Shown here in pieces: positions 1 to 13,384 of a stretch of 14,762 bases of DNA. Below the pieces are notes generated by a model. That model had not been told where the DNA came from, searched no databases, and saw nothing but the letters and a program-made list of their open reading frames with translations. Numbering within the stretch: position 1 is the stretch's first letter; each line of letters opens with the position of its first letter. The DNA is taken from positions 1 to 14,762 of the IMG/VR virus record IMGVR_UViG_2684622581_000004; one strand, written 5' to 3'. This DNA comes from a virus. Lineage: Duplodnaviria > Heunggongvirae > Uroviricota > Caudoviricetes. The translations under genes and the position numbers were made by a program.

Positions 1-1248
1 ATGGCACTGAATATTCCATTCAGAAATGCGTACTATCGTTTTGCATCCAGTTACTCATTTCTCTTTTTTATTTCCTGGTCGCTGTGGTGGTCGTTATACG
101 CTATTTGGCTGAAAGGACATCTAGGGTTGACAGGGACGGAATTAGGTACACTTTATTCGGTCAACCAGTTTACCAGCATTCTATTTATGATGTTCTACGG
201 CATCGTTCAGGATAAACTCGGTCTGAAGAAACCGCTCATCTGGTGTATGAGTTTCATCCTGGTCTTGACCGGACCGTTTATGATTTACGTTTATGAACCG
301 TTACTGCAAAGCAATTTTTCTGTAGGTCTAATTCTGGGGGCGCTCTTTTTTGGCCTGGGGTATCTGGCGGGATGCGGTTTGCTTGACAGCTTCACCGAAA
401 AAATGGCGCGAAATTTTCATTTCGAATATGGAACAGCGCGCGCCTGGGGATCTTTTGGCTATGCTATTGGCGCGTTCTTTGCCGGCATATTTTTTAGTAT
501 CAGTCCCCATATCAACTTCTGGTTGGTCTCGCTATTTGGCGCTGTATTTATGATGATCAACATGTGTTTTAAAGATAAGGATCACCAGTGCGTAGCGGCG
601 GATGCGGGAGGGGTAAAAAAAGAGGATTTTATCGCAGTTTTCAAGGATCGAAACTTCTGGGTTTTCGTCATATTTATTGTGGGGACGTGGTCTTTCTATA
701 ACATTTTTGATCAACAACTTTTTCCTGTCTTTTATGCAGGTTTATTCGAATCACACGATGTAGGAACGCGCCTGTATGGTTATCTCAACTCATTCCAGGT
801 GGTACTCGAAGCGCTATGCATGGCGATTATTCCTTTCTTTGTGAATCGGGTAGGGCCAAAAAATGCATTACTTATCGGTGTTGTGATTATGGCGTTGCGT
901 ATCCTTTCCTGCGCGCTGTTCGTTAACCCCTGGATTATTTCATTAGTGAAGCTGTTACATGCTATTGAGGTTCCACTTTGTGTCATATCCGTCTTCAAAT
1001 ACAGCGTGGCAAATTTTGATAAGCGCCTGTCGTCGACGATCTTTCTGATTGGTTTTCAAATTGCCAGTTCGCTTGGGATTGTGCTGCTTTCAACGCCGAC
1101 TGGGATACTCTTTGACCACGCAGGCTACCAGACAGTTTTCTTCGCAATTTCGGGTATTGTCTGCCTGATGTTGCTATTTGGTATTTTCTTCTTGAGTAAA
1201 AAACGCGAGCAAATAGTTATGGAAACGCCTGTACCTTCAGCAATATAG
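1..1248 (+). CDS. cscB: Sucrose:H+ symporter (oligosaccharide:H+ symporter, LacY family, MFS)
   Basis: 415-aa ORF, highly hydrophobic with 12-TM-like pattern; N-terminus MALNIPFRNAYYRF... matches my recollection of E. coli CscB; clear LacY-family resemblance. Stop TAG at 1246-1248. Confidence 0.85.
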   Translation: MALNIPFRNAYYRFASSYSFLFFISWSLWWSLYAIWLKGHLGLTGTELGTLYSVNQFTSILFMMFYGIVQDKLGLKKPLIWCMSFILVLTGPFMIYVYEPLLQSNFSVGLILGALFFGLGYLAGCGLLDSFTEKMARNFHFEYGTARAWGSFGYAIGAFFAGIFFSISPHINFWLVSLFGAVFMMINMCFKDKDHQCVAADAGGVKKEDFIAVFKDRNFWVFVIFIVGTWSFYNIFDQQLFPVFYAGLFESHDVGTRLYGYLNSFQVVLEALCMAIIPFFVNRVGPKNALLIGVVIMALRILSCALFVNPWIISLVKLLHAIEVPLCVISVFKYSVANFDKRLSSTIFLIGFQIASSLGIVLLSTPTGILFDHAGYQTVFFAISGIVCLMLLFGIFFLSKKREQIVMETPVPSAI

Positions 1249-1300: not shown

Positions 1301-1687
1301 TAATAATACTAAAGTGCTTAGCCCTGCTAATAATCACCTAATCCAAACGCCTCATTCATGTTCTGGTACAGTCGCTCAAATGTACTTCAGATGCGCGGTT
1401 CGCTGATTTCCAGGACATTGTCGTCATTCAGCGACCTGTCCCGTGTATCACGGTCCTGCGAATTCATCAAGGAATGCATTGCGGAGTGAAGTATCGAGTC
1501 ACGCCATATTTGCTATCAGGATTCTGTGTGATGGTTACATCGCCCGGCCCAGGGCTGTTTAGTCATCAGCGCTTTCTGACAGTGCTGAGATTTCAACCTG
1601 TTGCAGTAAAAATGAGTAGATATAAGGCAAGTGTGCTGCCAAACCTATCTTTTACGGGGTGAAGGTAGATTTCGTTTGAAGGGTATC

Positions 1688-1702
1688 TGGTGTCCCCTGC
1701 AG
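1688..1702 (-). other. Prophage attR core: copy of argW tRNA-Arg 3' end (CTGCAGGGGACACCA on minus strand)
   Basis: Minus-strand 15-mer is identical to the 3' terminal sequence of argW as I recall it; lies 73 nt beyond the torI stop; core sits inside a 7-bp inverted repeat CCCCTGC...GCAGGGG (1694-1726). Confidence 0.65.
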
Positions 1703-1759
1703 ACATCTACTTGACGCGGCAGGGGATTGATTAGAATGGTGTTTTTTAGGTGTGAGAAA

Positions 1760-1781
1760 TATTTTACCCGCTATTTTACCC
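1760..1781. repeat. Tandem direct repeat TATTTTACCC x2 (12-bp period) overlapping torI 3' end, adjacent to attR
   Basis: Read directly; position between RDF gene and att core fits arm-type/RDF binding sites (inference). Confidence 0.3.
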
Positions 1782-1976
1782 ATTGGCGCGGCTTAAGAGC
1801 TTATTTTTGAATTCACAATGGTCACGATATAACCATCTTGCTCGCCCGTGGATAACTTTGGCTTTTGGCAGGTCGCCGGACTTAATCCGGTCATAGATGA
1901 AGGTTTTACCAAAGCCAGTATCAGCCATGATGAATTTCAAATCAACTAGGGAATCAGGCTGTAGTTCGTGTTGCAT
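1776..1976 (-). CDS. torI: Excisionase-like recombination directionality factor / Tor inhibitor (AlpA-Xis family winged helix)
   Basis: 66-aa ORF MQHELQPDSLVDLKFIMADTGFGKTFIYDRIKSGDLPKAKVIHGRARWLYRDH...; matches my recollection of E. coli TorI; RBS GGAG about 9 nt upstream; last gene before attR. Confidence 0.8.
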   Translation of the reverse strand: MQHELQPDSLVDLKFIMADTGFGKTFIYDRIKSGDLPKAKVIHGRARWLYRDHCEFKNKLLSRANG

Positions 1977-1995
1977 GAGTGCTATCTCCGAATAG

Positions 1996-2011
1996 GGAAT
2001 CGAACCTGCAA
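1996..2011 (-). other. 16-nt tRNA T-arm fragment (TTGCAGGTTCGATTCC) identical to the argW segment immediately 5' of the att core
   Basis: Minus-strand 16-mer in the torI promoter region; similarity does not extend into the rest of a tRNA, so this is a fragment, not a gene. Confidence 0.4.
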
Positions 2012-2107
2012 ATCAGGTAATAAAAATACGCTCAATGACGGCGATGGTAGATCAGGATATTTTAAGAAACTGACAGGCCTCATCGAGTGTGAGGCTGTAT
2101 GGCTCTA

Positions 2108-2413
2108 TTATTTCACCTCTTGTTGTGACATTGTTGAAAAATGGATACCAGCTCGTTGCTGCCAGACGATCCAACCGAGAGTCATATCCCATGCCATGTA
2201 TTCGTTATCGCCGTTTTTTGCTCTCCGACGATCTACTAAGTCACCGAAACGCTTTTCCATGAATAATTCATAAGCTTCGCGTTCATCTAGTTCTACTTCC
2301 AGAGATAGGAGTGCGATTTCATAAGCACGGCGCTCAATATCGTCTCGCACGTCAAGGCTGCTGATACGCTCTTTAATTTCTTTAATCAGTTCTTTGTCGG
2401 TAAAAGTGGTCAT
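2108..2413 (-). CDS. yfdT: Hypothetical prophage protein (YfdT-like, 101 aa)
   Basis: ORF with GGAGG RBS; start overlaps upstream stop (TAATG); size and position match K-12 CPS-53 yfdT as I recall it. Confidence 0.55.
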   Translation of the reverse strand: MTTFTDKELIKEIKERISSLDVRDDIERRAYEIALLSLEVELDEREAYELFMEKRFGDLVDRRRAKNGDNEYMAWDMTLGWIVWQQRAGIHFSTMSQQEVK

Positions 2414-2775
2414 TATGCTCCAGCCTCCGGTGCTTTTGGCATTACTGCCCAGTGAGTGATATTGACGTTTTCAAGGTCCCCGACCTGAAATGTCCACTGC
2501 CATTCTCCGGTTTCTTTTTGCCCCCAGGTGTACCAGAGAGAACGCCAGCCAATTAGCCAGCCTTCTCCGTTAGCATCGAATAACAAAACACTTTCATTTG
2601 CTGGTGGCAGTTCAGTTGACACTGGTATTGCTTTGTTTTCCTGTGCTGCACATTTAGCTTCAAGCGCATCGAATTTGCGCACCAGGTATTCAGCATCTGT
2701 TTCATTCACTTTCAGATCTCGCGGTACACATCTCCCACGAAGAAACCCTTCCATTTCGAAAACATTCATGCGCAT
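2413..2775 (-). CDS. yfdS: DUF551-family phage protein (YfdS-like, 120 aa)
   Basis: C-terminal W-rich motif ...GWLIGWRSLWYTWGQ...NITHWAVMP typical of DUF551; GGAG RBS; overlaps upstream gene by 10 nt. Confidence 0.6.
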   Translation of the reverse strand: MRMNVFEMEGFLRGRCVPRDLKVNETDAEYLVRKFDALEAKCAAQENKAIPVSTELPPANESVLLFDANGEGWLIGWRSLWYTWGQKETGEWQWTFQVGDLENVNITHWAVMPKAPEAGA

Positions 2776-3302
2776 TTGCGTAACTCCGATAACTCGTTAA
2801 AACGTTCCATAAACATCCCGTAGGCATGGCCCGGTGCCAGTGGAATCACGTTGAACATCTCTGTTGCCGGGATGCCTTCCAGTACAGGCCAGAAAGAGCC
2901 ATCATCAAGCCCGAGATCGCGGCGTTCGGTTGCCAGCATGATGAGATCGGCATATTTCACAGGCGTGCTCATAACCGGGGGTAACCCGTATTTCTCACGG
3001 ATTACGGCGTCTATTTTTTCTTCCATCCGTTTATAGTCAGGAAGAAGGCGTTTCAGTGGCGCGGGGATGTCCTGACAATAAGCTTCTGTTGCATCATGCA
3101 TTAACGCTTCAAAAGCAAATTCCTGCGGTACCAGCTGGCTGCAAAGCACCGCATGTTGGGCGACGCTGTAGAAGTGTGAAAGATGTCCTGCAAAGCGACA
3201 GATATTTGAAAGGGAAACCGCGATATCGTTAATATCGATGTTGTCTTTATTTATCCTGTCATAATAAAAATGCTTCCCGGAAAAAGTTTTAATAAATGAC
3301 AT
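2766..3302 (-). CDS. yfdR: HD-domain phosphohydrolase (5'-deoxynucleotidase, YfdR/YfbR-like)
   Basis: HD motifs (AQHAVL...ALMHDATEAY); start chosen at internal ATG 3302-3300 with GGAGAA RBS 5 nt upstream, giving 178 aa; the longer ORF to 3365 has no RBS. Confidence 0.7.
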   Translation of the reverse strand: MSFIKTFSGKHFYYDRINKDNIDINDIAVSLSNICRFAGHLSHFYSVAQHAVLCSQLVPQEFAFEALMHDATEAYCQDIPAPLKRLLPDYKRMEEKIDAVIREKYGLPPVMSTPVKYADLIMLATERRDLGLDDGSFWPVLEGIPATEMFNVIPLAPGHAYGMFMERFNELSELRKCA

Positions 3303-3396
3303 TTTGTTCTCCACGTTATATGCGCTGCACCGCGCTGAAATTTGGTTAAAGAAAAACCTCGCCATCAGGCGATTATTGAGTCAATTACGTTTCCAT

Positions 3397-3418
3397 AAAT
3401 GCCCCCGCAGGGGCATTT
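3397..3418 (-). terminator. Perfect 9-bp stem hairpin (AAATGCCCC-cgca-GGGGCATTT) 11 nt downstream of the yfdQ-like stop
   Basis: Read directly; weak U-tract, so a terminator or RNA-processing role is uncertain. Confidence 0.25.
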
Positions 3419-3430
3419 GCAGTAATGAAA

Positions 3431-4255
3431 TCAGGCGGTGAAAGTACCAATAAAGGTTTCTACTTTGCTGTCTTTGAACTTCTCAACAAGCAGATCACGA
3501 AATTCGTTAGCCATTTCCTCCTGCACTGCTTCCAGCTGAATAATGCGTAGTACCAGTACAGGACGATCGCCAGTGATAATGCTGAGGCGTAATTTAAACG
3601 GACGTTCTTTCAGACCTTCAAACGGAACGCATTTAAATTCAAATGCCACTGGCATAATGTCTTTGGTCTTCGCTTCGACAGACTCCATCAGGGAGCGTTT
3701 GCCGCTGAAGTCATTATCTTCAAAATCAGCTGTCTGGTTCGCTTCAATTGTGATTTTACGGATCGCCGCAGCCGCTTTGGTTGCCTGAATGGCGTCACCA
3801 TTAGCATCAAAGCCCACAAGGTAGTCGGCCCAGTCTTCAATCCATTCTGCCAGTGACTTCTGGGAGTTACGCTCGCCGTTAACAGACAACAGGGCAGAGA
3901 ACGGTGCTGTCTTTTTCAGTTTGAGAGTGGCGGTGTTATCTGCGTGACCTGGTTCATCAATAGTACCCAGGTTAAGCACACTGACGGCTCGCATATTATC
4001 GGCATCGATAAAGCAGCGGGTGCCTTCATCTGCAAGATCTTTAGAATAACGGGTAAAGTCATCGATGCTGGCAGTGGAAAGCGCACCACGGAAACGGAAG
4101 CGATTTAAATTAAATTTTTCCAGATCATGAATGCGGAAATTCTCAGGCAATGCCACAGCATCGGCACCAATCTTACTGATAATTTCATTAACACCCTGAG
4201 CAGAAATAAGGGCATGGATTTGATTAATTGTGGTTGCGTCTAAGTTCTGAGACAT
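3431..4255 (-). CDS. yfdQ: DUF2303-family prophage protein (YfdQ-like, 274 aa)
   Basis: 274-aa ORF with GAGGA RBS; size and neighbourhood match K-12 yfdQ as I recall it. Confidence 0.6.
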
Positions 4256-4320
4256 AATAAGTCCTCACTATATAAAGATATTCAGTGATGAGATAAATAA
4301 TCAGTTTATTAAGAACGATA

Positions 4321-4683
4321 TTAACGACCTGCTGCGCGGAGTTTTCCGTCAGGCTCACCGGCAAGAGTCAGTAATTGTCCCTGGTCTTCCTGCAGAATAG
4401 TCAGGCGACCACCGCGATTGACATACATCGGCGTTTCGGTGGTGTCTTCTTCGGAAATTTTCCCGCGGTTAGTCGGGCGAACATATGAGAGTTTGTGTTT
4501 GATTTTCACTCGGTTCTCATCAAACGGTTCGATTTCTAGGTTGAGCGAGACCTTACCTTTGGTTCTCGTGTTCATCACACCGGAAGCGACTTCACTGAGA
4601 ACTGCGCCGATTTTGGTTTCAAATACGCCGCCGTCCAGCTCCCCGATAAATGCCTGCACATCAGTACTGCGTTCGCTAGCCAT
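4321..4683 (-). CDS. yfdP: Hypothetical prophage protein (YfdP-like, 120 aa)
   Basis: Start at ATG 4683-4681 with GAGGAG RBS 7 nt upstream; the 226-aa extension to 5001 runs through GC-rich Pro/Arg-rich sequence and is rejected. Confidence 0.55.
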   Translation of the reverse strand: MASERSTDVQAFIGELDGGVFETKIGAVLSEVASGVMNTRTKGKVSLNLEIEPFDENRVKIKHKLSYVRPTNRGKISEEDTTETPMYVNRGGRLTILQEDQGQLLTLAGEPDGKLRAAGR

Positions 4684-5151
4684 TTTGCTGCTCCTCATCA
4701 TATCGACCCTGCAAGGTCGGTTAGTTTCTCCACAAAACAGAGAAGAACACCTGCGGTGACTGCCGCCCGGATGGATTGGGTTATGAGCCCGTCGTCCGGT
4801 GATGCTCTTCTCTGTTTTGTAAAAAGGACGGTACCAGCCGGAAGCAAGGGTACAAGCTGGTACCGCCAAGACTACACACAGCATAAAGTTGTGGTGCCGG
4901 GTGCCTCCCGGTGCCTGGCGAAGGTTGCACACCAGGCGGGTGGGTATCCACAGAAGGTCGACTGTCAGCCTCAACCTTAACCCGCGTGCGCTGAGCCGCA
5001 TTCACCACAACGCTAAGGATTCTCTCTGGTTGAAAATACTTAGCTGTTATGTGCCTGCTTTTAGCCACATCAGGCGAGGTGGACCTAGTTATTCCCCAAC
5101 AACAAGGATTCGGTTAATCTGGTTATCCCCAACAACGCAAAAGGAAAAGAA
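4684..5151. other. GC-rich, hairpin-dense noncoding island (candidate structured ncRNA or cis-regulatory leader)
   Basis: No credible ORF in six frames; 15-bp perfect inverted repeat 4732-4746/4806-4820; 10-bp stem 4829-4838/4856-4865; further stems 4897-4911 and 4913-4938; direct repeats GTTATYCCCCAACAAC at 5088-5103 and 5121-5136; GC far higher than the flanking AT-rich genes. Confidence 0.45.
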
Positions 5152-5586
5152 ATGTCCGGTAATATCTATACGCTGTACAAATCCCACTGTGAAAATGTTG
5201 GAAAGTATCGGGGCATTGAAATCAGTGGGGTAGTGTCATCAGTCGAAATAAGCAAAGTTGAATCAAGGGCAACATTACTTACTCTTCTGGACCTTGTCTT
5301 ACATGAGCACCGGAAGAAATTCGGCACTCCCTATAATCAGTTGAATGGGAAAAAGGCTCTGGTTCACCTTATTCTGATGAAGCATCACTGGATGCCAAAA
5401 CAGATTAATGAGATGAAATTTGATGAACTTCTTCTTTCAATTCAGGATGAACTCACACTTGATAAAATAAGCGTAACCGCCCAGAAATTTTTAGATTATC
5501 GAGACTGGAGATCACAAATTCATCACTTTGATGATTTTGACGAAAATGAATGGGATCCTAATTTGTCTGCACAATATCTAAAGTAA
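5152..5586 (+). CDS. Orphan hypothetical protein (144 aa), AT-rich, opposite strand to the early-left operon
   Basis: ATG with AAGGA RBS 6 nt upstream; protein-like composition; no family recognised; markedly lower GC than neighbours. Confidence 0.55.
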   Translation: MSGNIYTLYKSHCENVGKYRGIEISGVVSSVEISKVESRATLLTLLDLVLHEHRKKFGTPYNQLNGKKALVHLILMKHHWMPKQINEMKFDELLLSIQDELTLDKISVTAQKFLDYRDWRSQIHHFDDFDENEWDPNLSAQYLK

Positions 5587-5764
5587 CATCCTGTGATAAA
5601 ACCGTGATTTCCTGATCCAGTTTTTTTAAGGAGTCTATTGTTTCCTGTCGATAAGACAGCACTTCACGAAGCTGGTTTATAGCTGCCAGCTTCTTTGTCA
5701 TCCACTCATAAATTTCCTCATCTGTGTAGCCAGGCGCGACGATTTTGGGTTCTGTTTTGTGCAT
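5558..5764 (-). CDS. Small acidic hypothetical protein (68 aa), first ORF downstream of PL
   Basis: ATG 5764-5762 with GAGGAG RBS at 7-nt spacing; overlaps the 3' end of the convergent 144-aa ORF by 29 nt; not Arg-rich, so not N-like. Confidence 0.5.
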   Translation of the reverse strand: MHKTEPKIVAPGYTDEEIYEWMTKKLAAINQLREVLSYRQETIDSLKKLDQEITVLSQDVTLDIVQTN

Positions 5765-5809
5765 TTCACATCTCCTCAAGTTATCAGTTACTTGTTGATG
5801 GGGACCAGA

Positions 5810-5821
5810 TTGTTAAAGAGC
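5810..5821 (-). promoter_or_regulatory. rrn-type boxA (GCTCTTTAACAA) in the PL leader; nut-like antitermination element
   Basis: Minus-strand 12-mer matches the rrn boxA core as I recall it (TGCTCTTTAACAATTTATCA); flanked by hairpins at 5824-5841 and 5776-5793. Confidence 0.5.
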
Positions 5822-5823
5822 TA

Positions 5824-5846
5824 AGCGTCCTGTAGGGCGCTTTTTT
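5824..5846 (+). terminator. Stem-loop (AGCGTCC-tgta-GGGCGCT) followed by T6: intrinsic terminator on the plus strand, or boxB-like hairpin on the leftward transcript
   Basis: 7-bp stem with one G-U pair, 4-nt loop, U-run only on the plus strand; would end the transcript of the 144-aa gene. Confidence 0.5.
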
Positions 5847-5930
5847 GTTGCTAACGAATCATCCTGGACTTCATATGCCCCAGGCGGCTACTTCGTGGGC
5901 GTCCTGCCTGTTTGTTGTTTCTCTTGGGTA

Positions 5931-5959
5931 CATTATGTATCTCAAAGGTACATTGTCAA
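5931..5959 (-). promoter_or_regulatory. Leftward early promoter PL (-35 TTGACA, 16-17 bp spacer, -10 CATAAT) overlapped by GGTACA operator half-sites
   Basis: Minus-strand hexamers read directly; GGTACA at 5927-5932 and 5947-5952 resemble the OR half-sites. Confidence 0.55.
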
Positions 5960-5998
5960 GTATAAAAAAACCTGCCGAAGCAGGTTCATAAACATTGA

Positions 5999-6673
5999 TT
6001 AGGCTTTGATTTTGTATCTTCTTGGTTTTCCTGAGAAAATCACAGTACCAATTATAGAGCAATTACCGTTGATCTTGATGTAAGGCTCAGGCCAGTTTGG
6101 GTTTAACGCTTTGAGATAACGCTGTGTCCCATCTTCTATCAACCTTTTGAAGGTGGTTTCACCTGTATCGTGCATCAATGCAATAACGTCGTCACCGTGG
6201 CAGGCAGGTACTTCAGGATCGACAAAAATCATGTCTCCCGGGCGGTACTCATCAATCATTGAATCACCTATCACCCGCAAGATATAAGTCATTTCCCCAC
6301 AGGGTACAGGGCAGGGATACGTTTCTGCTGTGCTCAAATCAACCTCAGAATATCCAACTTCTTTCCATGCTCCGGCCTGTACCCATGATATGACAGGGAC
6401 TAATGTGATTTGTTTATTAGTGATTGAAACATCAGGTTTTTTTGTGATGTTCGTTGTCTGGTGTTCTTGATCGAGCCATCCGACAGGCAGGTCGAAACAT
6501 TTTTCGATGTGTCGTGCCATGCTGTCACCGATATTTTTAGTAGCACCATCTCCCATAAACCTGCTGGTCTGGGTTGGCTCGCGATCAATCATAGTGGCAA
6601 AGGAAGAATTCCCGCCAACACCATCTCTCAGTTTTCTGGCGTTAGACCGCCGGATGTCATGGATTGTTTTCAT
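5999..6673 (-). CDS. cI: CI-like prophage repressor (N-terminal HTH, C-terminal S24 LexA-type autopeptidase)
   Basis: 224 aa; S24 catalytic Ser in VIGDSM and Lys in TFKRL; Ala-Gly candidate cleavage site (VQAGAW); divergent from a cro-like gene. Confidence 0.85.
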   Translation of the reverse strand: MKTIHDIRRSNARKLRDGVGGNSSFATMIDREPTQTSRFMGDGATKNIGDSMARHIEKCFDLPVGWLDQEHQTTNITKKPDVSITNKQITLVPVISWVQAGAWKEVGYSEVDLSTAETYPCPVPCGEMTYILRVIGDSMIDEYRPGDMIFVDPEVPACHGDDVIALMHDTGETTFKRLIEDGTQRYLKALNPNWPEPYIKINGNCSIIGTVIFSGKPRRYKIKA

Positions 6674-6688
6674 AACGAAATTAAAACC

Positions 6689-6757
6689 CTTGTACCGTTA
6701 AGGTACAAGTATCTTGAAGGTTCATTTCAATCATGTAATATGTACACCGGAGGTACA
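6689..6757. promoter_or_regulatory. OR operator region: palindrome CTTGTACC-N5-GGTACAAG (6689-6709) and palindrome TGTACA-N5-GGTACA (6741-6757)
   Basis: Perfect inverted repeats read directly, flanking and overlapping the PR hexamers. Confidence 0.6.
6714..6741 (+). promoter_or_regulatory. Rightward early promoter PR (-35 TTGAAG, 16-bp spacer, -10 TAATAT)
   Basis: Hexamers read directly, 23 nt upstream of the cro ATG; second operator overlaps -10/+1. Confidence 0.55.
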
Positions 6758-6763
6758 TATCGT

Positions 6764-6964
6764 ATGAAAGCGTATTGGGACTCTTTAACCAAAGAACAGC
6801 AGGGCGAGTTGGCCGGAAAAGTTGGCTCAACACCTGGCTACTTACGGCTGGTTTTCAATGGCTATAAAAAAGCCAGTTTTGTGCTGGCTAAAAAACTTGA
6901 GCAATGCACGTCAGGTGCAATTACGAAATCTGACTTAAGACCGGATATCTATCCGAAAGATTAG
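6764..6964 (+). CDS. cro: Cro-like small HTH regulator (66 aa)
   Basis: Divergent from cI across the operator region; GGAGG upstream; the 167-aa ORF-track version is an antisense extension into cI and is rejected. Confidence 0.6.
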   Translation: MKAYWDSLTKEQQGELAGKVGSTPGYLRLVFNGYKKASFVLAKKLEQCTSGAITKSDLRPDIYPKD

Positions 6965-6995
6965 CAGAACACTTTCAATTTTTAACCACAGAACG

Positions 6996-7559
6996 ATGAG
7001 GCTAATCGTGGGTAAGCATCACTGGAAAATAGAAAAACAGCCTGAGTGGTACGTGAAAGCTGTCAGAAAAATTATCGCGGCGTTGCCGGGTGGTTACGCT
7101 GAAGCGGCTGACTGGCTCGATGTAACAGAAAACGCTTTATTCAACCGCCTTCGTGCAGATGGCGATCAGATTTTCCCGCTGGGATGGGCAATGGTTTTAC
7201 AGCGTGCTGGTGGCACTCACTTCATTGCTGATGCTGTGGCGCAGTCTGCAAATGGCGTCTTTGTGTCTCTTCCTGACGTCGAGGATGTGGACAACGCCGA
7301 TATTAACCAGCGTCTGCTGGAAGTCATTGAACAGATCGGCAGTTATTCAAAACAGATTCGTTCAGCAATCGAAGACGGTGTAGTGGAACCGCATGAGAAG
7401 ACAGCAATTAACGACGAGTTGTACCTCTCAATTTCGAAGCTGCAGGAGCATGCAGCACTGGTCTACAAAATTTTTTGCATTTCAGAAAGTAATGACGCCC
7501 GCGAGTGTGCAGCTCCGGGCGCCGTGGCGTGTCGTGACTGTGGAGAAACTAACGCATGA
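6996..7559 (+). CDS. CII-like phage regulatory protein (putative; YdaT/CP76-like)
   Basis: Position immediately after cro; 187-aa ORF; alternative GTG start at 7008 has a better RBS (GAGG); family assignment is from weak recollection. Confidence 0.4.
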
Positions 7560-7894
7560 ACAGTTTAACAACACACTACCGTCGCTCGCAACTGATTGCG
7601 CTTCCTGTACCGGGTGGAAAAGCGAAGGTGGAGTATTGCTATGCAGTGAATGTACCAGGTGACAGGGAAATTGTAACCCACAGCTTTGCAGAGTGGGCTG
7701 TGGGTGATTTCAACCGGCAGAAGGAGACAGTCCTTTGCGACAAGTTAACCGCTGGTTCAAAGATCACTACGGAGTGCCCGTCAGAGTCATTCGTTGGGAG
7801 CCGGAAACACAACGGGTTATCTACCTCCGTGAAGGCTATGAGCATGAGTGCTTCAGCCCGCTCGAACAGTTTCGTCGTAAATTCAGGGAAATAG
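7556..7894 (+). CDS. Hypothetical protein, apparently frame-disrupted (frame changes at about 7705-7740)
   Basis: ATG overlaps upstream stop (ATGA) with GGAGAA RBS; N-terminal 60 aa look protein-like, the C-terminal part is Ser-rich junk, while the -1 frame from TTG 7734 (AAGGAG RBS) to 7914 gives a good globular sequence. Confidence 0.3.
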
Positions 7895-7903
7895 AGGTCG
7901 GTC

Positions 7904-8845
7904 ATGAGCACTAAATTAACCGGCTATGTATGGGATGGTTGCGCTGCGTCAGGCATGAAATTATCCAGCGTGGCAATTATGGCCCGCCTGGCTGATTTCA
8001 GTAATGACGAAGGTGTGTGCTGGCCATCAATTGAAACCATTGCCCGTCAGATTGGCGCGGGGATGAGTACCGTCAGAACGGCTATCGCACGGCTGGAAGC
8101 AGAAGGCTGGTTAACGCGTAAGGCGCGTCGCCAGGGTAACCGCAATGCGTCGAATGTTTATCAGCTTAACGTTGCGAAGCTTCAGGCAGCGGCATTTTCT
8201 CAACTGTCAGATTCTGACCCGTCAAAATCTGATGCATCAAAATCTGACCCGTCAAAATTTGATGCGTCGAAATCTGGCAAAAAAGCGGGTTTTCACCCGT
8301 CAGAATCTGGCGGGGATCCGTCAGTAAAATCAAAACATGATCCGTCAGATAAAAAAACTTCTCGTCCGGACGCTTCGCAACCGGACACGCAGACGGCTGA
8401 ACAGGAGTTTTTAACTCGCCATCCTGATGCGGTTGTATTCAGCCCTAAAAAGCGCCAGTGGGGAACGCAGGATGATTTGACCTGCGCACAGTGGCTCTGG
8501 AAAAAAATCATCGCCCTGTACGAGCAGGCCGCCGAATGTGACGGCGAGGTGGTTCGTCCCAAAGAACCGAACTGGACAGCCTGGGCAAACGAAATTCGCC
8601 TGATGTGTGTGCAGGATGGTCGTACTCACAAACAAATCTGCGAGATGTACAGCCGCGTCAGCCGCGATCCGTTCTGGTGCCGTAACGTGCTCAGCCCGTC
8701 GAAGCTGCGGGAAAAATGGGATGAGCTTTCCCTGCGCTTATCGCCGTCCGTCAGCACGCACACAGAAAAACGTGAAGACCCGTACTTCAAAGCCAGTTAC
8801 GACAATGTGGACTACAGCCAGATCCCGGCAGGATTCAGGGGGTGA
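7904..8845 (+). CDS. Replication initiator (lambda O-like, N-terminal winged HTH) with internal iteron origin
   Basis: 313 aa; AGAGG RBS; N-terminal HTH-like region; central low-complexity DPSKSDASKS repeats encoded by DNA iterons. Confidence 0.65.
   Translation: MSTKLTGYVWDGCAASGMKLSSVAIMARLADFSNDEGVCWPSIETIARQIGAGMSTVRTAIARLEAEGWLTRKARRQGNRNASNVYQLNVAKLQAAAFSQLSDSDPSKSDASKSDPSKFDASKSGKKAGFHPSESGGDPSVKSKHDPSDKKTSRPDASQPDTQTAEQEFLTRHPDAVVFSPKKRQWGTQDDLTCAQWLWKKIIALYEQAAECDGEVVRPKEPNWTAWANEIRLMCVQDGRTHKQICEMYSRVSRDPFWCRNVLSPSKLREKWDELSLRLSPSVSTHTEKREDPYFKASYDNVDYSQIPAGFRG
8213..8357 (+). repeat. Iteron array (candidate ori): two 30-bp tandem repeats plus further CCGTCAG copies, followed by an A-rich tract
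   Basis: TCTGACCCGTCAAAATCTGATGCATCAAAA at 8213-8242 and near-identical copy at 8243-8272; CCGTCA core at 8219, 8249, 8296, 8318, 8342. Confidence 0.6.
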
Positions 8846-9336
8846 TTATGAGTCTTTTGAATGAAGTTCAGAAATTCATTGAAGCCCATCCTGGGTGTAC
8901 TTCCGGAGACATTGCTGATGCTTTTGCAGGTTACTCACGGCAGCGCGTTCTGCAGTCAGCAAGCAAGTTACGTCAGAGTGGGCGTGTGGCTCACCGTTGT
9001 GAAGGGGATACACGCAGACATTTCCCGCGCCAGACAAAGATATCGCCGGAGGCGGAACGGCAACCAGTTCGTGAAACCAGACCTGTGCGCAATTTCTATG
9101 TCGGCACTAACGATCACCGGGTGATTTTGTGCCTGACCCGCCAGGCTGAAGAACTGGAGTCAAGGGGCTTATACCGTCGTGCTGCAACCGTGTGGATGGC
9201 GGCATTCCGTGAAAGCCACTCCCAGCCAGAACGAAACAATTTTCTGGCGCGTCGTGAGCGGTGCTTACGGAAAAGCAGCAAGCGCGCTGCATCGGGTGAA
9301 GAGTGGTATCTGTCAGGGAATTACGTGGGGGCTTAA
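8842..9336 (+). CDS. yfdN: PerC-family-like transcriptional regulator (YfdN-like, 164 aa from GTG; alternative ATG at 8848)
   Basis: Motif RQAEELESRGLYRRAATVWMAA resembles the PerC/Pch signature; overlaps the upstream stop; size matches K-12 yfdN as I recall it. Confidence 0.5.
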   Translation: MIMSLLNEVQKFIEAHPGCTSGDIADAFAGYSRQRVLQSASKLRQSGRVAHRCEGDTRRHFPRQTKISPEAERQPVRETRPVRNFYVGTNDHRVILCLTRQAEELESRGLYRRAATVWMAAFRESHSQPERNNFLARRERCLRKSSKRAASGEEWYLSGNYVGA

Positions 9337-9989
9337 TGAGTAATAAATATTGTCAGGCGCTGGTGGAACTGCGGAACAAACCAGCCCATGAACTGAAGGA
9401 AGTGGGCGATCAGTGGCGCACGCCGGATAACATTTTCTGGGGAATTAACACCCTGTTTGGTCCGTTTGTTCTGGATCTGTTCACTGACGGTGATAACGCC
9501 AAATGTGCCGCGTATTACACGGCGGAAGACAACGCGCTGGCGCATGACTGGTCAGAACGTCTTGCGGAGCTTAAAGGTGCTGCCTTTGGTAATCCCCCAT
9601 ACAGCCGCGCCAGTCAGCATGAGGGGCAATACATCACCGGCATGCGTTACATCATGAAGCATGCCAGTGCCATGCGTGATAAAGGCGGGCGCTATGTTTT
9701 CCTGATCAAAGCTGCCACCAGCGAAGTGTGGTGGCCGGAAGATGCAGATCATATTGCTTTTATTCGCGGGCGTATTGGTTTTGAACTGCCTGCCTGGTTT
9801 ATCCCGAAGGATGAGAAGCAGGTGCCGACAGGCGCTTTCTTCGCTGGTGCTATTGCTGTTTTCGACAAGACCTGGAAGGGACCGGCAATCAGCTACATCG
9901 GGCGCGATGAACTTGAGGCATGTGGTGAGGCGTTTCTGGCGCAGGTTCGCCAGCAGGCGGAAAAACTGGTCAGGGAGATGGCGGCATGA
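9336..9989 (+). CDS. Phage N6-adenine DNA methyltransferase (Dam-like, orphan)
   Basis: Catalytic NPPY motif (FGNPPYSR); start at ATG 9336 overlapping the upstream stop (TAATG); no adjacent restriction endonuclease. Confidence 0.8.
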   Translation: MSNKYCQALVELRNKPAHELKEVGDQWRTPDNIFWGINTLFGPFVLDLFTDGDNAKCAAYYTAEDNALAHDWSERLAELKGAAFGNPPYSRASQHEGQYITGMRYIMKHASAMRDKGGRYVFLIKAATSEVWWPEDADHIAFIRGRIGFELPAWFIPKDEKQVPTGAFFAGAIAVFDKTWKGPAISYIGRDELEACGEAFLAQVRQQAEKLVREMAA

Positions 9990-10312: not shown

Positions 10313-10698
10313 AGCTGAACCTGCCTTTTCCGCCCAGCGTGAACACGTACTGGCGACACCCCAACAAAGGGGCGTTTGCTGGTAAGAGCCTGATAAGCGC
10401 GGCGGGGCGAAAATTCCAGAGCGCGGCGTGCGCAGCAATAGTTGAGCAGTTACGTCGTCTGCCGAAACCAACGTCGGCACCTGCTTCAGTGGAGATCGTG
10501 TTGTTTCCTCCGGATAACCGGATCCGCGATCTGGACAACTATAACAAGGCGCTGTTTGACGCCCTGACCCACGCGGGTGTGTGGGAAGACGACAGTCAGG
10601 TGAAAAGAATGCTGGTGGAGTGGGGACCGGTTATCCCGGAAGGGAAGGTCGAGATCACTATCAGTAAGTACGAGAAAACGGCGGGTGCAGCCGCCTGA
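10309..10698 (+). CDS. rusA: Holliday junction resolvase RusA
   Basis: 129 aa with RusA-like N-terminus (LPFPPSVNTYWRH) and DLDNYNKALFDALT motif; ATGA overlap with upstream gene. Confidence 0.8.
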   Translation: MKLNLPFPPSVNTYWRHPNKGAFAGKSLISAAGRKFQSAACAAIVEQLRRLPKPTSAPASVEIVLFPPDNRIRDLDNYNKALFDALTHAGVWEDDSQVKRMLVEWGPVIPEGKVEITISKYEKTAGAAA

Positions 10699-11516: not shown

Positions 11517-12512
11517 GTGACCGTGAGAGCACTACTGACCCCTGAAATTGCCCCGCGTATGGGGATCGTATTGTTCAGGCCAGGTTCAGAGTTGATGCCC
11601 CTGTTTATGCAGAGGCGTGTCCTGCTGGAGCCTGAGCCGGAACGTTATTCATCTTTCGCCAGTGGTGCCGTTCCGGCGGCATCACAACCGCTGGCGGATG
11701 ATCCTGCCGTTCGGGCCGTGTTCCGCAATGAGGCAGTGATCCGTCGTGCTGGTGGCGTGGAATGTCTTGAAAGCTGGTTACTTCGTGAAAAAGGCTGCCA
11801 GTGGCCTCATTCCGACTGGCACAGCGAGAACATGACAACAATGCGACACGCTCCGGGCGCAATCCGTTTGTGCTGGCACTGCGATAACCAGCTGCGCGAT
11901 CAGTTCACGGAACGGCTGGAATCAATGGCAACGGATAACTGTGCCCGCTGGGTGTTGTCTGTTGTGCGTCGGGATCTCGGTTTTGATGATAGTCACGTTG
12001 TGACAATGCCGGAACTGTGCTGGTGGCTGATTCGTAATGACCTGGCGGATGCCTTACCGGAAAGTGCAGCCCGTAAGGCACTGAGATTACCGAAGCCTGT
12101 TGTGCAGGCGGTCACCCGGGAAAGTGACCTTGTGCCTTCGGTTCCTGCCACCAGCATTATCCAGGATAAAGCGAAAAAGGTGCTGGCGCTGAAAGTGGAT
12201 CCGGAGTCGCCGGAGTCTTTTATGTTACGCCCAAAACGTCGCCGCTGGGTTAATGAAAAGTACACGCGCTGGGTTAAGACACAGCCGTGTGCATGTTGTG
12301 GAAAGCTTGCTGATGATCCCCACCACCTGATAGGTCACGGTCAGGGTGGAATGGGAACAAAAGCGCATGACCTCTTTGTGTTGCCTTTGTGCAGAAAGCA
12401 TCACGACGAGCTGCATGCGGATACCGTGGCATTTGAAGAGAAGTATGGCTCCCAGCTGGAGCTGATATTTCGTTTTATCGATCGTGCGCTGGCAATAGGC
12501 GTACTGGCGTAA
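11517..12512 (+). CDS. DUF968-family protein with C-terminal Cys/His (HNH-like) motif
   Basis: C-terminal CACCG...HHLIGHGQGGMGTKAHD...LPLCRKHHDELH; GTG start with overlapping GAGG; start codon uncertain. Confidence 0.55.
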   Translation: MTVRALLTPEIAPRMGIVLFRPGSELMPLFMQRRVLLEPEPERYSSFASGAVPAASQPLADDPAVRAVFRNEAVIRRAGGVECLESWLLREKGCQWPHSDWHSENMTTMRHAPGAIRLCWHCDNQLRDQFTERLESMATDNCARWVLSVVRRDLGFDDSHVVTMPELCWWLIRNDLADALPESAARKALRLPKPVVQAVTRESDLVPSVPATSIIQDKAKKVLALKVDPESPESFMLRPKRRRWVNEKYTRWVKTQPCACCGKLADDPHHLIGHGQGGMGTKAHDLFVLPLCRKHHDELHADTVAFEEKYGSQLELIFRFIDRALAIGVLA

Positions 12513-12525
12513 GTGGAGAACGAGC

Positions 12526-13278
12526 ATGAACCTTGAAGCCTTACCGAAATATTACTCCCCAAAATCTCCAAAATTGAGTGATGACGCACCGGCGACAGGC
12601 TCTGGTGGTTTAACAATTACGGATGTGATTGCTGCGCAGGGGATGGTGCAGTCGAAAGCACCGCTTGGGTTTGCCTTATTCCTGGCAAAAGTTGGTGTTC
12701 AGGATCCTCAGTTTGCGATTGAAGGTCTGCTCAATTACGCGATGGCACTGGATAACCCGACATTGAATAAATTGAGTGAAGAAACCCGGCTACAGATTAT
12801 TCCTTACCTTGTGAATTTTGCCTTTGCTGATTATTCCAGGTCTGCGGCAAGTAAGGCTCGCTGTGAGCATTGTGCTGGTAATGGATTTCATAATGTATTG
12901 CGCGAAGTGGTGAAACACTCCAGAAGCGGGGAATCTGTTATCAAGGAAGAGTGGGTGAAGGAACTATGTCAGCATTGTCATGGTAAGGGAGAAGTCAGCA
13001 CAGCGTGCAGAGGGTGTAAGGGTAAAGGTATTGTCCTGGATGAAAAAAGGACCCGGCTTCATGGCACGCCTGTTTATAAGATTTGTGGGCGTTGCAATGG
13101 AAACCGGTTTAGCCGTTTACCAACCACACTGGCGCGGCATCATGTCCAGAAGCTGGTACCAGATCTGACGGATTATCAGTGGTACAAAGGATATGCAGAT
13201 GTCATTGATAAACTGGTGACAAAGTGCTGGCAGGAAGAAGCATATGCTGAGGCGCAATTAAGAAAAGTGACGAGATAA
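12526..13278 (+). CDS. Late-gene antitermination protein Q
   Basis: 250 aa with multiple CxxC zinc-binding pairs (CEHCAGNG, CQHCHGKG, CRGCKGKG, CGRCNGN); sits directly upstream of a late promoter/terminator and the lysis genes; GGAGAA RBS. Confidence 0.7.
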   Translation: MNLEALPKYYSPKSPKLSDDAPATGSGGLTITDVIAAQGMVQSKAPLGFALFLAKVGVQDPQFAIEGLLNYAMALDNPTLNKLSEETRLQIIPYLVNFAFADYSRSAASKARCEHCAGNGFHNVLREVVKHSRSGESVIKEEWVKELCQHCHGKGEVSTACRGCKGKGIVLDEKRTRLHGTPVYKICGRCNGNRFSRLPTTLARHHVQKLVPDLTDYQWYKGYADVIDKLVTKCWQEEAYAEAQLRKVTR

Positions 13279-13309
13279 ATGATTTTCGCCGAAGATAGTG
13301 ACATGATTC

Positions 13310-13338
13310 TTGCATTTTTCAAAAGATCTGGTTAGGAT
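13310..13338 (+). promoter_or_regulatory. Candidate late promoter PR' (-35 TTGCAT, 17-bp spacer, -10 TAGGAT)
   Basis: Hexamers read directly, 32 nt after the Q stop and upstream of a terminator. Confidence 0.4.
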
Positions 13339-13384
13339 TCTCCTAACGATGGGCTTTGTGTGTCTACCATTGATAATCTTCAAG

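Follow-up and report, generated by a model that had tools for sequence, protein, structure and literature searches.

The window analysed here is the whole 14,762-nucleotide stretch of a Caudoviricetes virus record (IMG/VR IMGVR_UViG_2684622581_000004). It carries parts of an SfV/e14-like lambdoid prophage and was compared with CPS-53 (KplE1), a cryptic prophage of E. coli K-12. A recurrent, palindromic, TA-centred breakpoint was found to be common to CPS-53, the K-12 prophage e14, and many prophage remnants, and no report of it was found in the accessible literature. Positions 4703-8138 of the window very probably represent the lysis-lysogeny and replication-start control region of a prophage of this kind, integrated at an argW-type attachment (att) site. 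CPS-53 lacks this region through one 3,436-bp deletion, the right end of which falls at the TA of the recurrent site GGGTAACC within the O-like replication initiator gene (hereafter O).

The deletion in CPS-53

The argW-dsdC interval of K-12 MG1655 was aligned pairwise to the whole window by blastn, and the junction was read at the level of single bases. Two blocks of CPS-53 were recovered. The left block, window 1688-4702, extends from attR through the genes torI to yfdP with an identity of 96.6% over 3015 bp, and the right block, window 8137-9602, contains yfdO'-yfdN-yfdM' with an identity of 96.9% over 1466 bp. The flanking genes are thus orthologous, as the initial annotation had held, and the two blocks are directly contiguous in K-12 (junction at NC_000913 2473585/2473586). 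Therefore, CPS-53 is without the DNA that lies between them in the window. The missing DNA was initially placed at 4684-7903, an interval that proved to be shifted, since the aligned ends fall at 4703-8138 (or, equivalently, 4701-8136). Past window position 9602, CPS-53 contains tail-fibre remnants instead.

With a slash marking the join, the K-12 junction reads ...CTCCTCATCATA/ACCGCAATG... (extracted K-12 locus L001, 11586/11587, yfdP/yfdO'), and the corresponding ends in the window read ...CATCATA/TCGACC... (4702) and ...CCAGGGTA/ACCGC... (8138). As a TA is present at both ends, and constitutes the only shared bases, three placements of the junction are equivalent. The left end is located 19 nt past the yfdP start codon. 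Its TA (4701-4702) forms the base of a short hairpin (4702-4721), and the stop codon of a ymfH-like open reading frame (ORF) is 1-2 nt away. The right end is located 234 nt into the O gene (7904-8845), so that the missing segment takes in the first 78 codons of O. This junction was found in 361 genomes, the first 60 listed of which were K-12 laboratory derivatives or close look-alikes.

The initial annotation had also regarded the window as a reference for what K-12 had lost, a view that is partly supported. The window indicates the kind of DNA found between yfdP and O in intact relatives, but it represents one possible counterpart and not a demonstrated ancestor of the lost DNA, because the yfdP-O interval is mosaic across the phage group. 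At least 80% of 4684-7903 was present in only 146 of the 2,827 genomes having any match, and the 3.2-kb interval showed identities of 98.8-99.4% in the 30 best-matching genomes listed. Other relatives contain different repressor/cro cassettes, or ymfI/ymfJ of the e14 type, between yfdP and O.

Recurrent breakpoints in the O gene and their partner sites

One octamer, GGGTAACC (8134-8141), at codons 78/79 of O, contains both the TA (8137-8138) at which the CPS-53 deletion stops on its right side and the last base of the O fragment in e14 (oweE', 8137). A second recurrent breakpoint, GGCTATCG (8080-8087), was found at codons 60/61. These two sites are referred to as O78 and O60. When a 241-bp DNA probe centred on 8137 was used, an intact O78 site was found in 1,579 records, and the few partial non-K-12 matches that were sampled included two independent deletions in complete genomes. 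In NRZ100214, O was joined at 8140 to gpJ via GGGTAAC, and in CFSAN061772, within an e14-family element at icd, O was joined at 8086 to the tail-fibre/pinE region.

A protein census with O residues 1-78 as the query returned 119 short proteins, in which the N-terminus of O was followed by foreign tails. The sequences diverged after residue 78 in 45 clusters and after residue 79 in eight, which together comprised 51 distinct tails, while about 18 distinct tails diverged after residues 60/61, and all other positions from 44 to 124 combined accounted for 37. In the tails that were mapped to DNA, the O side always ended in ...CAGGGTA/ or ...ACGGCTA/, and the partner nearly always carried a TA at the join. 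Elsewhere in this part of O, the TA positions, GGTTA at 8109 included, showed zero to two events. Deletions far outnumbered inversions, as only one of about 40 mapped partners was on the opposite strand.

The junctions were also observed among IMG/VR contigs, more than 120 of which contain an intact O78 site. Rightward junctions (...CCAGGGTA/partner) were found in 11 contigs with at least 10 different partners, and leftward junctions (partner-TA/ACCGCAATG) in six contigs with five different left partners, the K-12 type included. In these scans, no real junction was found after G8136, the K-12 e14 type was the only one after T8137, and one junction was found after A8139. The base at -3 always came from the left partner and the base at +1 always from the right partner, and the pattern GGHTA, in which the -3 base would be that of the partner, had no matches among the IMG/VR junction products. 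These junction positions and the absence of a partner base at -3 place the exchange inside the TA on both strands. Within the class of deletions anchored at the O78 site, that of CPS-53 belongs to the leftward members.

A sequence logo of 35 distinct partner sites showed G (46%), G (66%), any base, T, and A to the left of the join, followed by Y, C (63%), and C or G to its right. The logo is symmetric about the TA, and corresponds to the palindrome GGNTANCC with TA at its centre. O78 matches this palindrome perfectly and O60 in seven of eight positions, and the ymfH breakpoint in the e14 variant of SZQ1, GGGTATCC, is again a perfect match. Seven perfect GGNTANCC sites are present in the window, and two of them, both in the RusA gene, serve as partners. 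One of the two, GGATAACC (10512-10519), is a partner of the O sites and in addition an anchor of deletions of its own, with seven IMG/VR contigs that are joined there to six different partners. As this site behaves like the O sites while being 2.4 kb from the origin, the breakpoint phenomenon is not tied to the origin. The recurrent junctions are represented by extracted loci L014-L030 and L157-L163 and by window sites 8134-8141, 8080-8087, and 10512-10519.

An exception to the GGNTANCC rule was observed in the tail-fibre region, at the site TTTTA/CCCGTGGTAACC (TTTTA/CCC). The same base of this site is joined by unrelated deletions in CPS-53 (yfdM'/yfdL') and in the e14 variant of SZQ1. The tail-fibre junctions are located at L001 10122-10124 in CPS-53, at L004 14312 in SZQ1 (ymfH'/tail fibre), and at L003 12564 in e14.

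Possible mechanism of the breaks and the relation between CPS-53 and e14

The sharp position of the breaks, the two-sided and symmetric conservation of the partner sites, and an overlap of TA only point to sequence-specific cutting or strand exchange, with the ends joined afterwards. In the proposed mechanism, a double-strand cut or strand exchange would take place inside the TA, either with 2-nt ends or blunt, and the ends would then be rejoined. The cause would be a nuclease leaving TA ends, or a recombinase. The excess of deletions over inversions is consistent with cutting plus ligation, or with selection. On this basis, SfV/e14-like E. coli prophages may have been repeatedly shortened by cut-and-join events at GGNTANCC with exchange within the central TA, which would have produced the CPS-53 deletion and probably also the breaks in e14 and other 'grounded' prophages. 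We consider the case for this proposal to be evenly balanced. As for the enzyme responsible, the phage DUF968 protein, which contains a CxxHHxxxH motif, can be named only as a guess.

Several observations weigh against the overall reading of the missing segment and its breakpoints. The K-12 e14 junction itself (GGGT/GATGG, with a GGT overlap) does not cross at the TA, and on its left side the K-12 deletion ends at TCATATCG, a poor fit to GGNTANCC. With an interval that is mosaic among relatives, the alleles lost from CPS-53 need not equal those of the window. Furthermore, the counts of the protein census represent a biased sample, as the query ended at residue 78 and only short proteins were returned; neither the peak at residues 60/61 nor the scans of DNA are affected by where the query ended.

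Alternatively, the breaks could have resulted from fragile DNA ends near the replication origin, or from polymerase pausing, with repair by short homology, in which case the motif would reflect mere pairing with the O sequence. The O sites are indeed close to the iterons, 55-110 nt on their left side, and have small hairpins next to them, some overlaps are longer than TA (such as GGGTAAC with gpJ and GGT in K-12 e14), and selection would favour deletions that remove the origin and the late genes. However, the RusA site shows the same behaviour at a distance of 2.4 kb from the origin, and the partner sites are conserved on both the discarded and the kept sides, symmetrically about the TA. Annealing across the octamer would not give products in which the -3 base is that of the left partner, the +1 base is that of the right partner, and GGHTA is without a match. 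In addition, the neighbouring TA positions in O, GGTTA at 8109 among them, were used twice at most. Fragile ends are therefore considered a rather unlikely cause.

Other candidates for the underlying activity were rejected. Annealing across the octamer was ruled out by itself, as the predicted products with both variable bases from one partner were absent, and a type II topoisomerase with a 4-nt stagger makes the same prediction, which was not seen. A cut of the BstEII type at GGTNACC (G^GTNACC, with 5-nt overhangs) would account for the sites in O and in terminase, whereas most of the partners do not fit it, and the crossover is at TA. As a known parallel, Int-dependent deletions in phage lambda combine a fixed end, located at att, with secondary sites that vary. 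They share with the deletions described here a fixed endpoint that is joined to many secondary sites with a short common core, while the fixed points in the present case are GGNTANCC octamers inside coding genes, not att, and the common core is TA only. Action of the Pin invertase at quasi-sites was likewise dismissed. The crossover sites of Pin/Gin/Hin have the form CCTTCTCCCAAACC-NN-GGTTTGGGAGAAGG, which the breakpoints do not match; these are GGNTANCC sites with a TA core and are located elsewhere. The pix sites of e14 are at L003 12786-12806 and 14604-14624 (PMC12529663), and the tail-fibre junction at L003 12564 is not one of them.

The relation between CPS-53 and e14 was examined by aligning the window to the e14 locus, since ymfK, ymfT, and ymfL, which belong to e14, are named in the annotations of the best-matching genomes. 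Two parts of the window are retained in e14, namely 5850-8137 with an identity of 98.4% and 4694-5082 with an identity of 90%. Retention of the region in K-12, which according to the initial annotation would have spoken against its reading, is hence half true: CPS-53 is without it, but e14 contains a nearly identical ymfK-ymfT-ymfL-ymfM-oweE' block. The immunity region of e14 (ymfH-ymfK/cohE-ymfT/croE-ymfL-ymfM/sfiC-oweE') agrees with the window in gene order and in the alleles of its repressor, cro, cII-like, and ymfM genes. It differs from the window by having ymfI/ymfJ in place of a gene of the ECs1072 family and a 68-aa ORF, by being joined on its left side to xisE-intE rather than to yfdP-torI, and by an O gene that ends at codon 78 in a fusion to a terminase fragment, whereas O is full length in the window. 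CPS-53, in turn, has the same attR core as the window, torI-yfdP and yfdO'-yfdN-yfdM' at about 97% identity, and dsdC instead of a permease gene.

The fragments of O in the two K-12 prophages are complementary. The e14 match starts at 4694, only 8 nt away from where the CPS-53 deletion begins on the left, and it stops at 8137, which is both the oweE'/aaaE' fusion inside ymfN (e14 locus L003, 9404) and the first base of the CPS-53 O fragment. When oweE' and yfdO' are rejoined, they encode an in-frame O protein of 313 aa. The e14 junction was found in 283 genomes, and the first 60 listed were again K-12 laboratory derivatives or close look-alikes. In the accessible literature on oweE, yfdO, and ymfN, nothing was found on complementary O fragments or on a breakpoint in O.

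This complementarity is most simply explained as two uses of one hot site. A different explanation is that a single rearrangement in the K-12 lineage split one O gene at 8137/8138, with the left half either remaining in e14 or being moved there, joined to terminase, and placed the right half (yfdO'-yfdN-yfdM') in CPS-53 beside yfdP, such that the middle block of CPS-53 would be a captured piece of e14. Besides the matching ends at 8137 with the in-frame rejoining to 313 aa, and the proximity of the left boundaries (4694 in e14 and 4702 in CPS-53), such an event is favoured by the apparent confinement of both junctions to K-12-type genomes (283 and 361, as judged from the first 60 listed for each). 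It is also favoured by the thrW prophage of strain 2009C-3133, which contains all of the K-12 pieces, interleaved and non-overlapping, and by JNE120442. In this intact e14-family prophage, O-yfdN-methyltransferase directly follows the oweE' point, and the sequence is 97.5% identical to K-12 e14 and likewise 97.5% identical to the yfdO'-yfdM' block of CPS-53. Since JNE120442 is equally diverged from both, it is possible, as far as the sequences go, that the middle block of CPS-53 was derived from e14. However, the TA at 8137-8138 has been hit by dozens of independent events in both directions, and two hits in K-12 thus need no special link. In addition, xisE beside ymfH is native to the e14 family (SZQ1 and JNE120442), the divergence figures against other references disagree between the two blocks, and no continuation of the interleaved-piece pattern was found in Qin, DLP12, or Rac. 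A single event linking the two prophages is accordingly judged improbable, and two separate hits at the same site are preferred.

Two further scenarios were rejected. Cut-and-paste of the whole segment from CPS-53 into e14 was ruled out because xisE-ymfH is native in both SZQ1, which has a different downstream deletion, and JNE120442, which has an intact early region. A double inversion between the two K-12 prophages, which are oppositely oriented, required the re-use of an existing junction in every version drawn on paper. In the e14-family element of CFSAN061772 (extracted locus L010, 2808-9747), yfdR-yfdQ and a yfdP-like gene directly follow xisE; therefore, the early genes known from 'CPS-53' and the integration module known from 'e14' co-occur in nature.

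Gene content of the missing segment and its flanks

The missing segment is a known and common prophage module, and we infer its regulatory function from homology to e14 and lambda. The immunity region, the 'structured island', and the 'orphan gene' that the initial annotation had placed between the two arms were all recovered, as genes of the CI, Cro, and CII types, an STnc100-like RNA, and a gene of the ECs1072 family, respectively.

The CI-type repressor (5999-6673, minus strand) is an allele of ymfK/cohE with a nucleotide identity of 98.4% to K-12 e14 ymfK. It belongs to phrog_4 and contains a LexA-like S24 self-cleavage domain at residues 93-212 (Pfam Peptidase_S24, 92.8 bits against a cut-off of 23.3), as expected of a lambdoid repressor. 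A divergent control region (6674-6763) contains the palindromes CTTGTACCGTTAAGGTACAAG (6689-6709) and TGTACACCGGAGGTACA (about 6742-6758), which are presumed operators. On the plus strand, it is followed by a Cro-like helix-turn-helix (HTH) protein of 66 aa (6764-6964; ymfT allele; phrog_35, 57.7 bits), for which the Pfam matches YdaS_toxin and HTH_3 were both below the cut-off (25.1 bits against 30). Next is a CII-like regulator of 187 aa (6996-7559, plus strand; ymfL allele) with matches to Pfam Phage_CP76 (50.4 bits against 26) and NCBIfam YmfL (169.8 bits). A Cro-like gene that diverges from the repressor and precedes a CII-like gene is the arrangement of a lambdoid immunity region. A YmfM-type protein of 112 aa (7556-7894, plus strand; phrog_1170) has a nucleotide identity of 98.4% to e14, where YmfM of K-12 is the SOS-inducible division inhibitor SfiC (bioRxiv 10.1101/2020.11.19.390815). 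The series ends with O (7904-8845, plus strand; 313 aa; phrog_391, 452 bits; N-terminal winged-helix domain, Pfam HTH_36, 42.9 bits), which contains six origin iterons with a spacing of 15 nt at 8192-8314 within the gene, as in initiators of the O type.

To the left of the repressor, a PL-like promoter was predicted on the minus strand (5932-5959; TTGACA-16-CATAAT, 11/12), overlapped by operator-like GGTACA repeats. The promoter and terminator scan also identified terminator-like hairpins at 5823-5842 (plus strand) and 5968-5987 (minus strand). The first gene downstream of this promoter is the 68-aa ORF (5558-5764, minus strand; phrog_1744). The ECs1072-family phage-associated protein of 144 aa (5152-5586, plus strand; NCBIfam NF033230, 157.8 bits; phrog_5286) is encoded in a low-GC insert. 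Together with the 68-aa ORF, it forms a cassette (5083-5849, GC 39-41%) that takes the place of e14 ymfI/ymfJ. Relatives contain other cassettes at this position, which is hence a swap site for accessory genes, and PADLOC returned no defence-family match for the accessory genes of the window.

The structured island (4818-5041, minus strand, from Rfam and folding) comprises an STnc100-like RNA, a weakly DicF-like 3' part, and an intrinsic terminator. At Rfam gathering thresholds, no match was obtained in the window. The STnc100 model (RF02076) was matched over its full length with 43.4 bits (E 1e-7), which is below the gathering threshold of 47, and the likeness is thus taken as a resemblance only; the e14 copy scored 29.2 bits. 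DicF (RF00039) likewise stayed below its threshold of 48, with scores of 19.4 bits for the window and 28.5 bits for the e14 copy. The minus strand of 4695-5090 is predicted to fold with -167.6 kcal/mol (z -6.5). The 'ymfH' ORF that overlaps the structured RNA is annotated as frameshifted in most relatives, and the ymfH protein call in K-12 e14 may therefore be spurious.

In the transcriptional layout suggested by these features, a leftward early operon would start at the PL-like promoter and continue through the 68-aa ORF and the STnc100/DicF-like RNA to yfdP and on to torI, with the low-GC ECs1072-family gene as an insert on the opposite strand. CI would be transcribed leftward, and a divergent operon of the Cro-like, CII-like, YmfM-like, and O genes rightward. 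With the deletion, CPS-53 would thereby have been deprived of its repressor, of the early promoters on both sides, and of the part of O that binds DNA. In published work, KplE1 was found to lack a repressor gene and not to respond to SOS induction (PMC2951348), which fits the loss of this segment. The window shares with phage lambda the leftward repressor with a RecA-stimulated self-cleavage domain, the divergent cro-cII-O order, and the iterons inside the initiator gene, while most of the genes have no detectable sequence relationship to those of lambda. In contrast to lambda, the window has a division inhibitor between cII and O, and a PerC-like gene and a methyltransferase, instead of a separate helicase-loader gene of the P type, after O.

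At the far left, the attR core (1687-1702, minus strand) of an argW-type integration module matches 15 of the 16 bases of the KplE1 att core CTGCAGGGGACACCAT (PMC2951348), and with the torI orthologue at the right end, this fits an element of the CPS-53/KplE1 type. The left arm (1688-4702, minus strand) was assigned from the blastn match, the ORF sizes, and the K-12 annotation. It contains torI (1776-1976, 66 aa), yfdT (2108-2413, 101 aa), yfdS (2413-2775, 120 aa), yfdR (about 2766-3302), yfdQ (3431-4255, 274 aa), and yfdP (4321-4683, 120 aa), all on the minus strand. These sizes agree with those first given, except that 178 aa for yfdR holds only when the gene is read from the K-12 start, the ORF in the window itself having 199 aa. 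The yfdP frame is open upstream to an ATG at 5001 (4321-5001, minus strand, 226 aa), but this longer ORF is probably meaningless, as a GAGGAG ribosome-binding site is present at the start used in K-12 (4683). Adjoining attR, window 1-1248 encodes a 415-aa sugar permease of the LacY family (Pfam LacY_symp, 643 bits) where K-12 has dsdC. The permease is cscB-like and presumably consistent with strains that have sucrose (csc) genes at this locus.

The right arm (8137-9602, plus strand) contains the C-terminal part of O (yfdO'), yfdN (8842-9336, PerC-like), and yfdM', which is the first third of an N6-adenine methyltransferase gene that extends over 9336-9989 in its full form (plus strand). Of the right-side genes initially described as fragmented in K-12, O and the methyltransferase are fragments there, while yfdN is full length, with 164 aa in both. 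Farther to the right, the end of the DUF968 gene (whole gene 11517-12512) and a Q-like antiterminator, at 12195-13359, are 89.7% identical to ydfU/ydfT of the K-12 prophage Qin, and no DNA in the right half of the window was found to be shared with any K-12 prophage other than Qin.

As the feature is a known and common module, mapping a deletion in a cryptic prophage that is already well studied is an ordinary finding; of greater interest is the rule that the breakpoints follow. Among the small cryptic prophages of K-12, the two that are best known are broken at one and the same base of O, and in public data, dozens of independent deletions have their crossover at the TA of a GGNTANCC site. 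Should a defined activity be responsible, the loss of replication and killing genes from prophages that keep their immunity would be explained. Such an activity would also make prophage remnants predictable by a rule, and a new nuclease or recombinase might be behind it. Prophage decay would then be governed by a simple rule of sites and not by illegitimate recombination at random.

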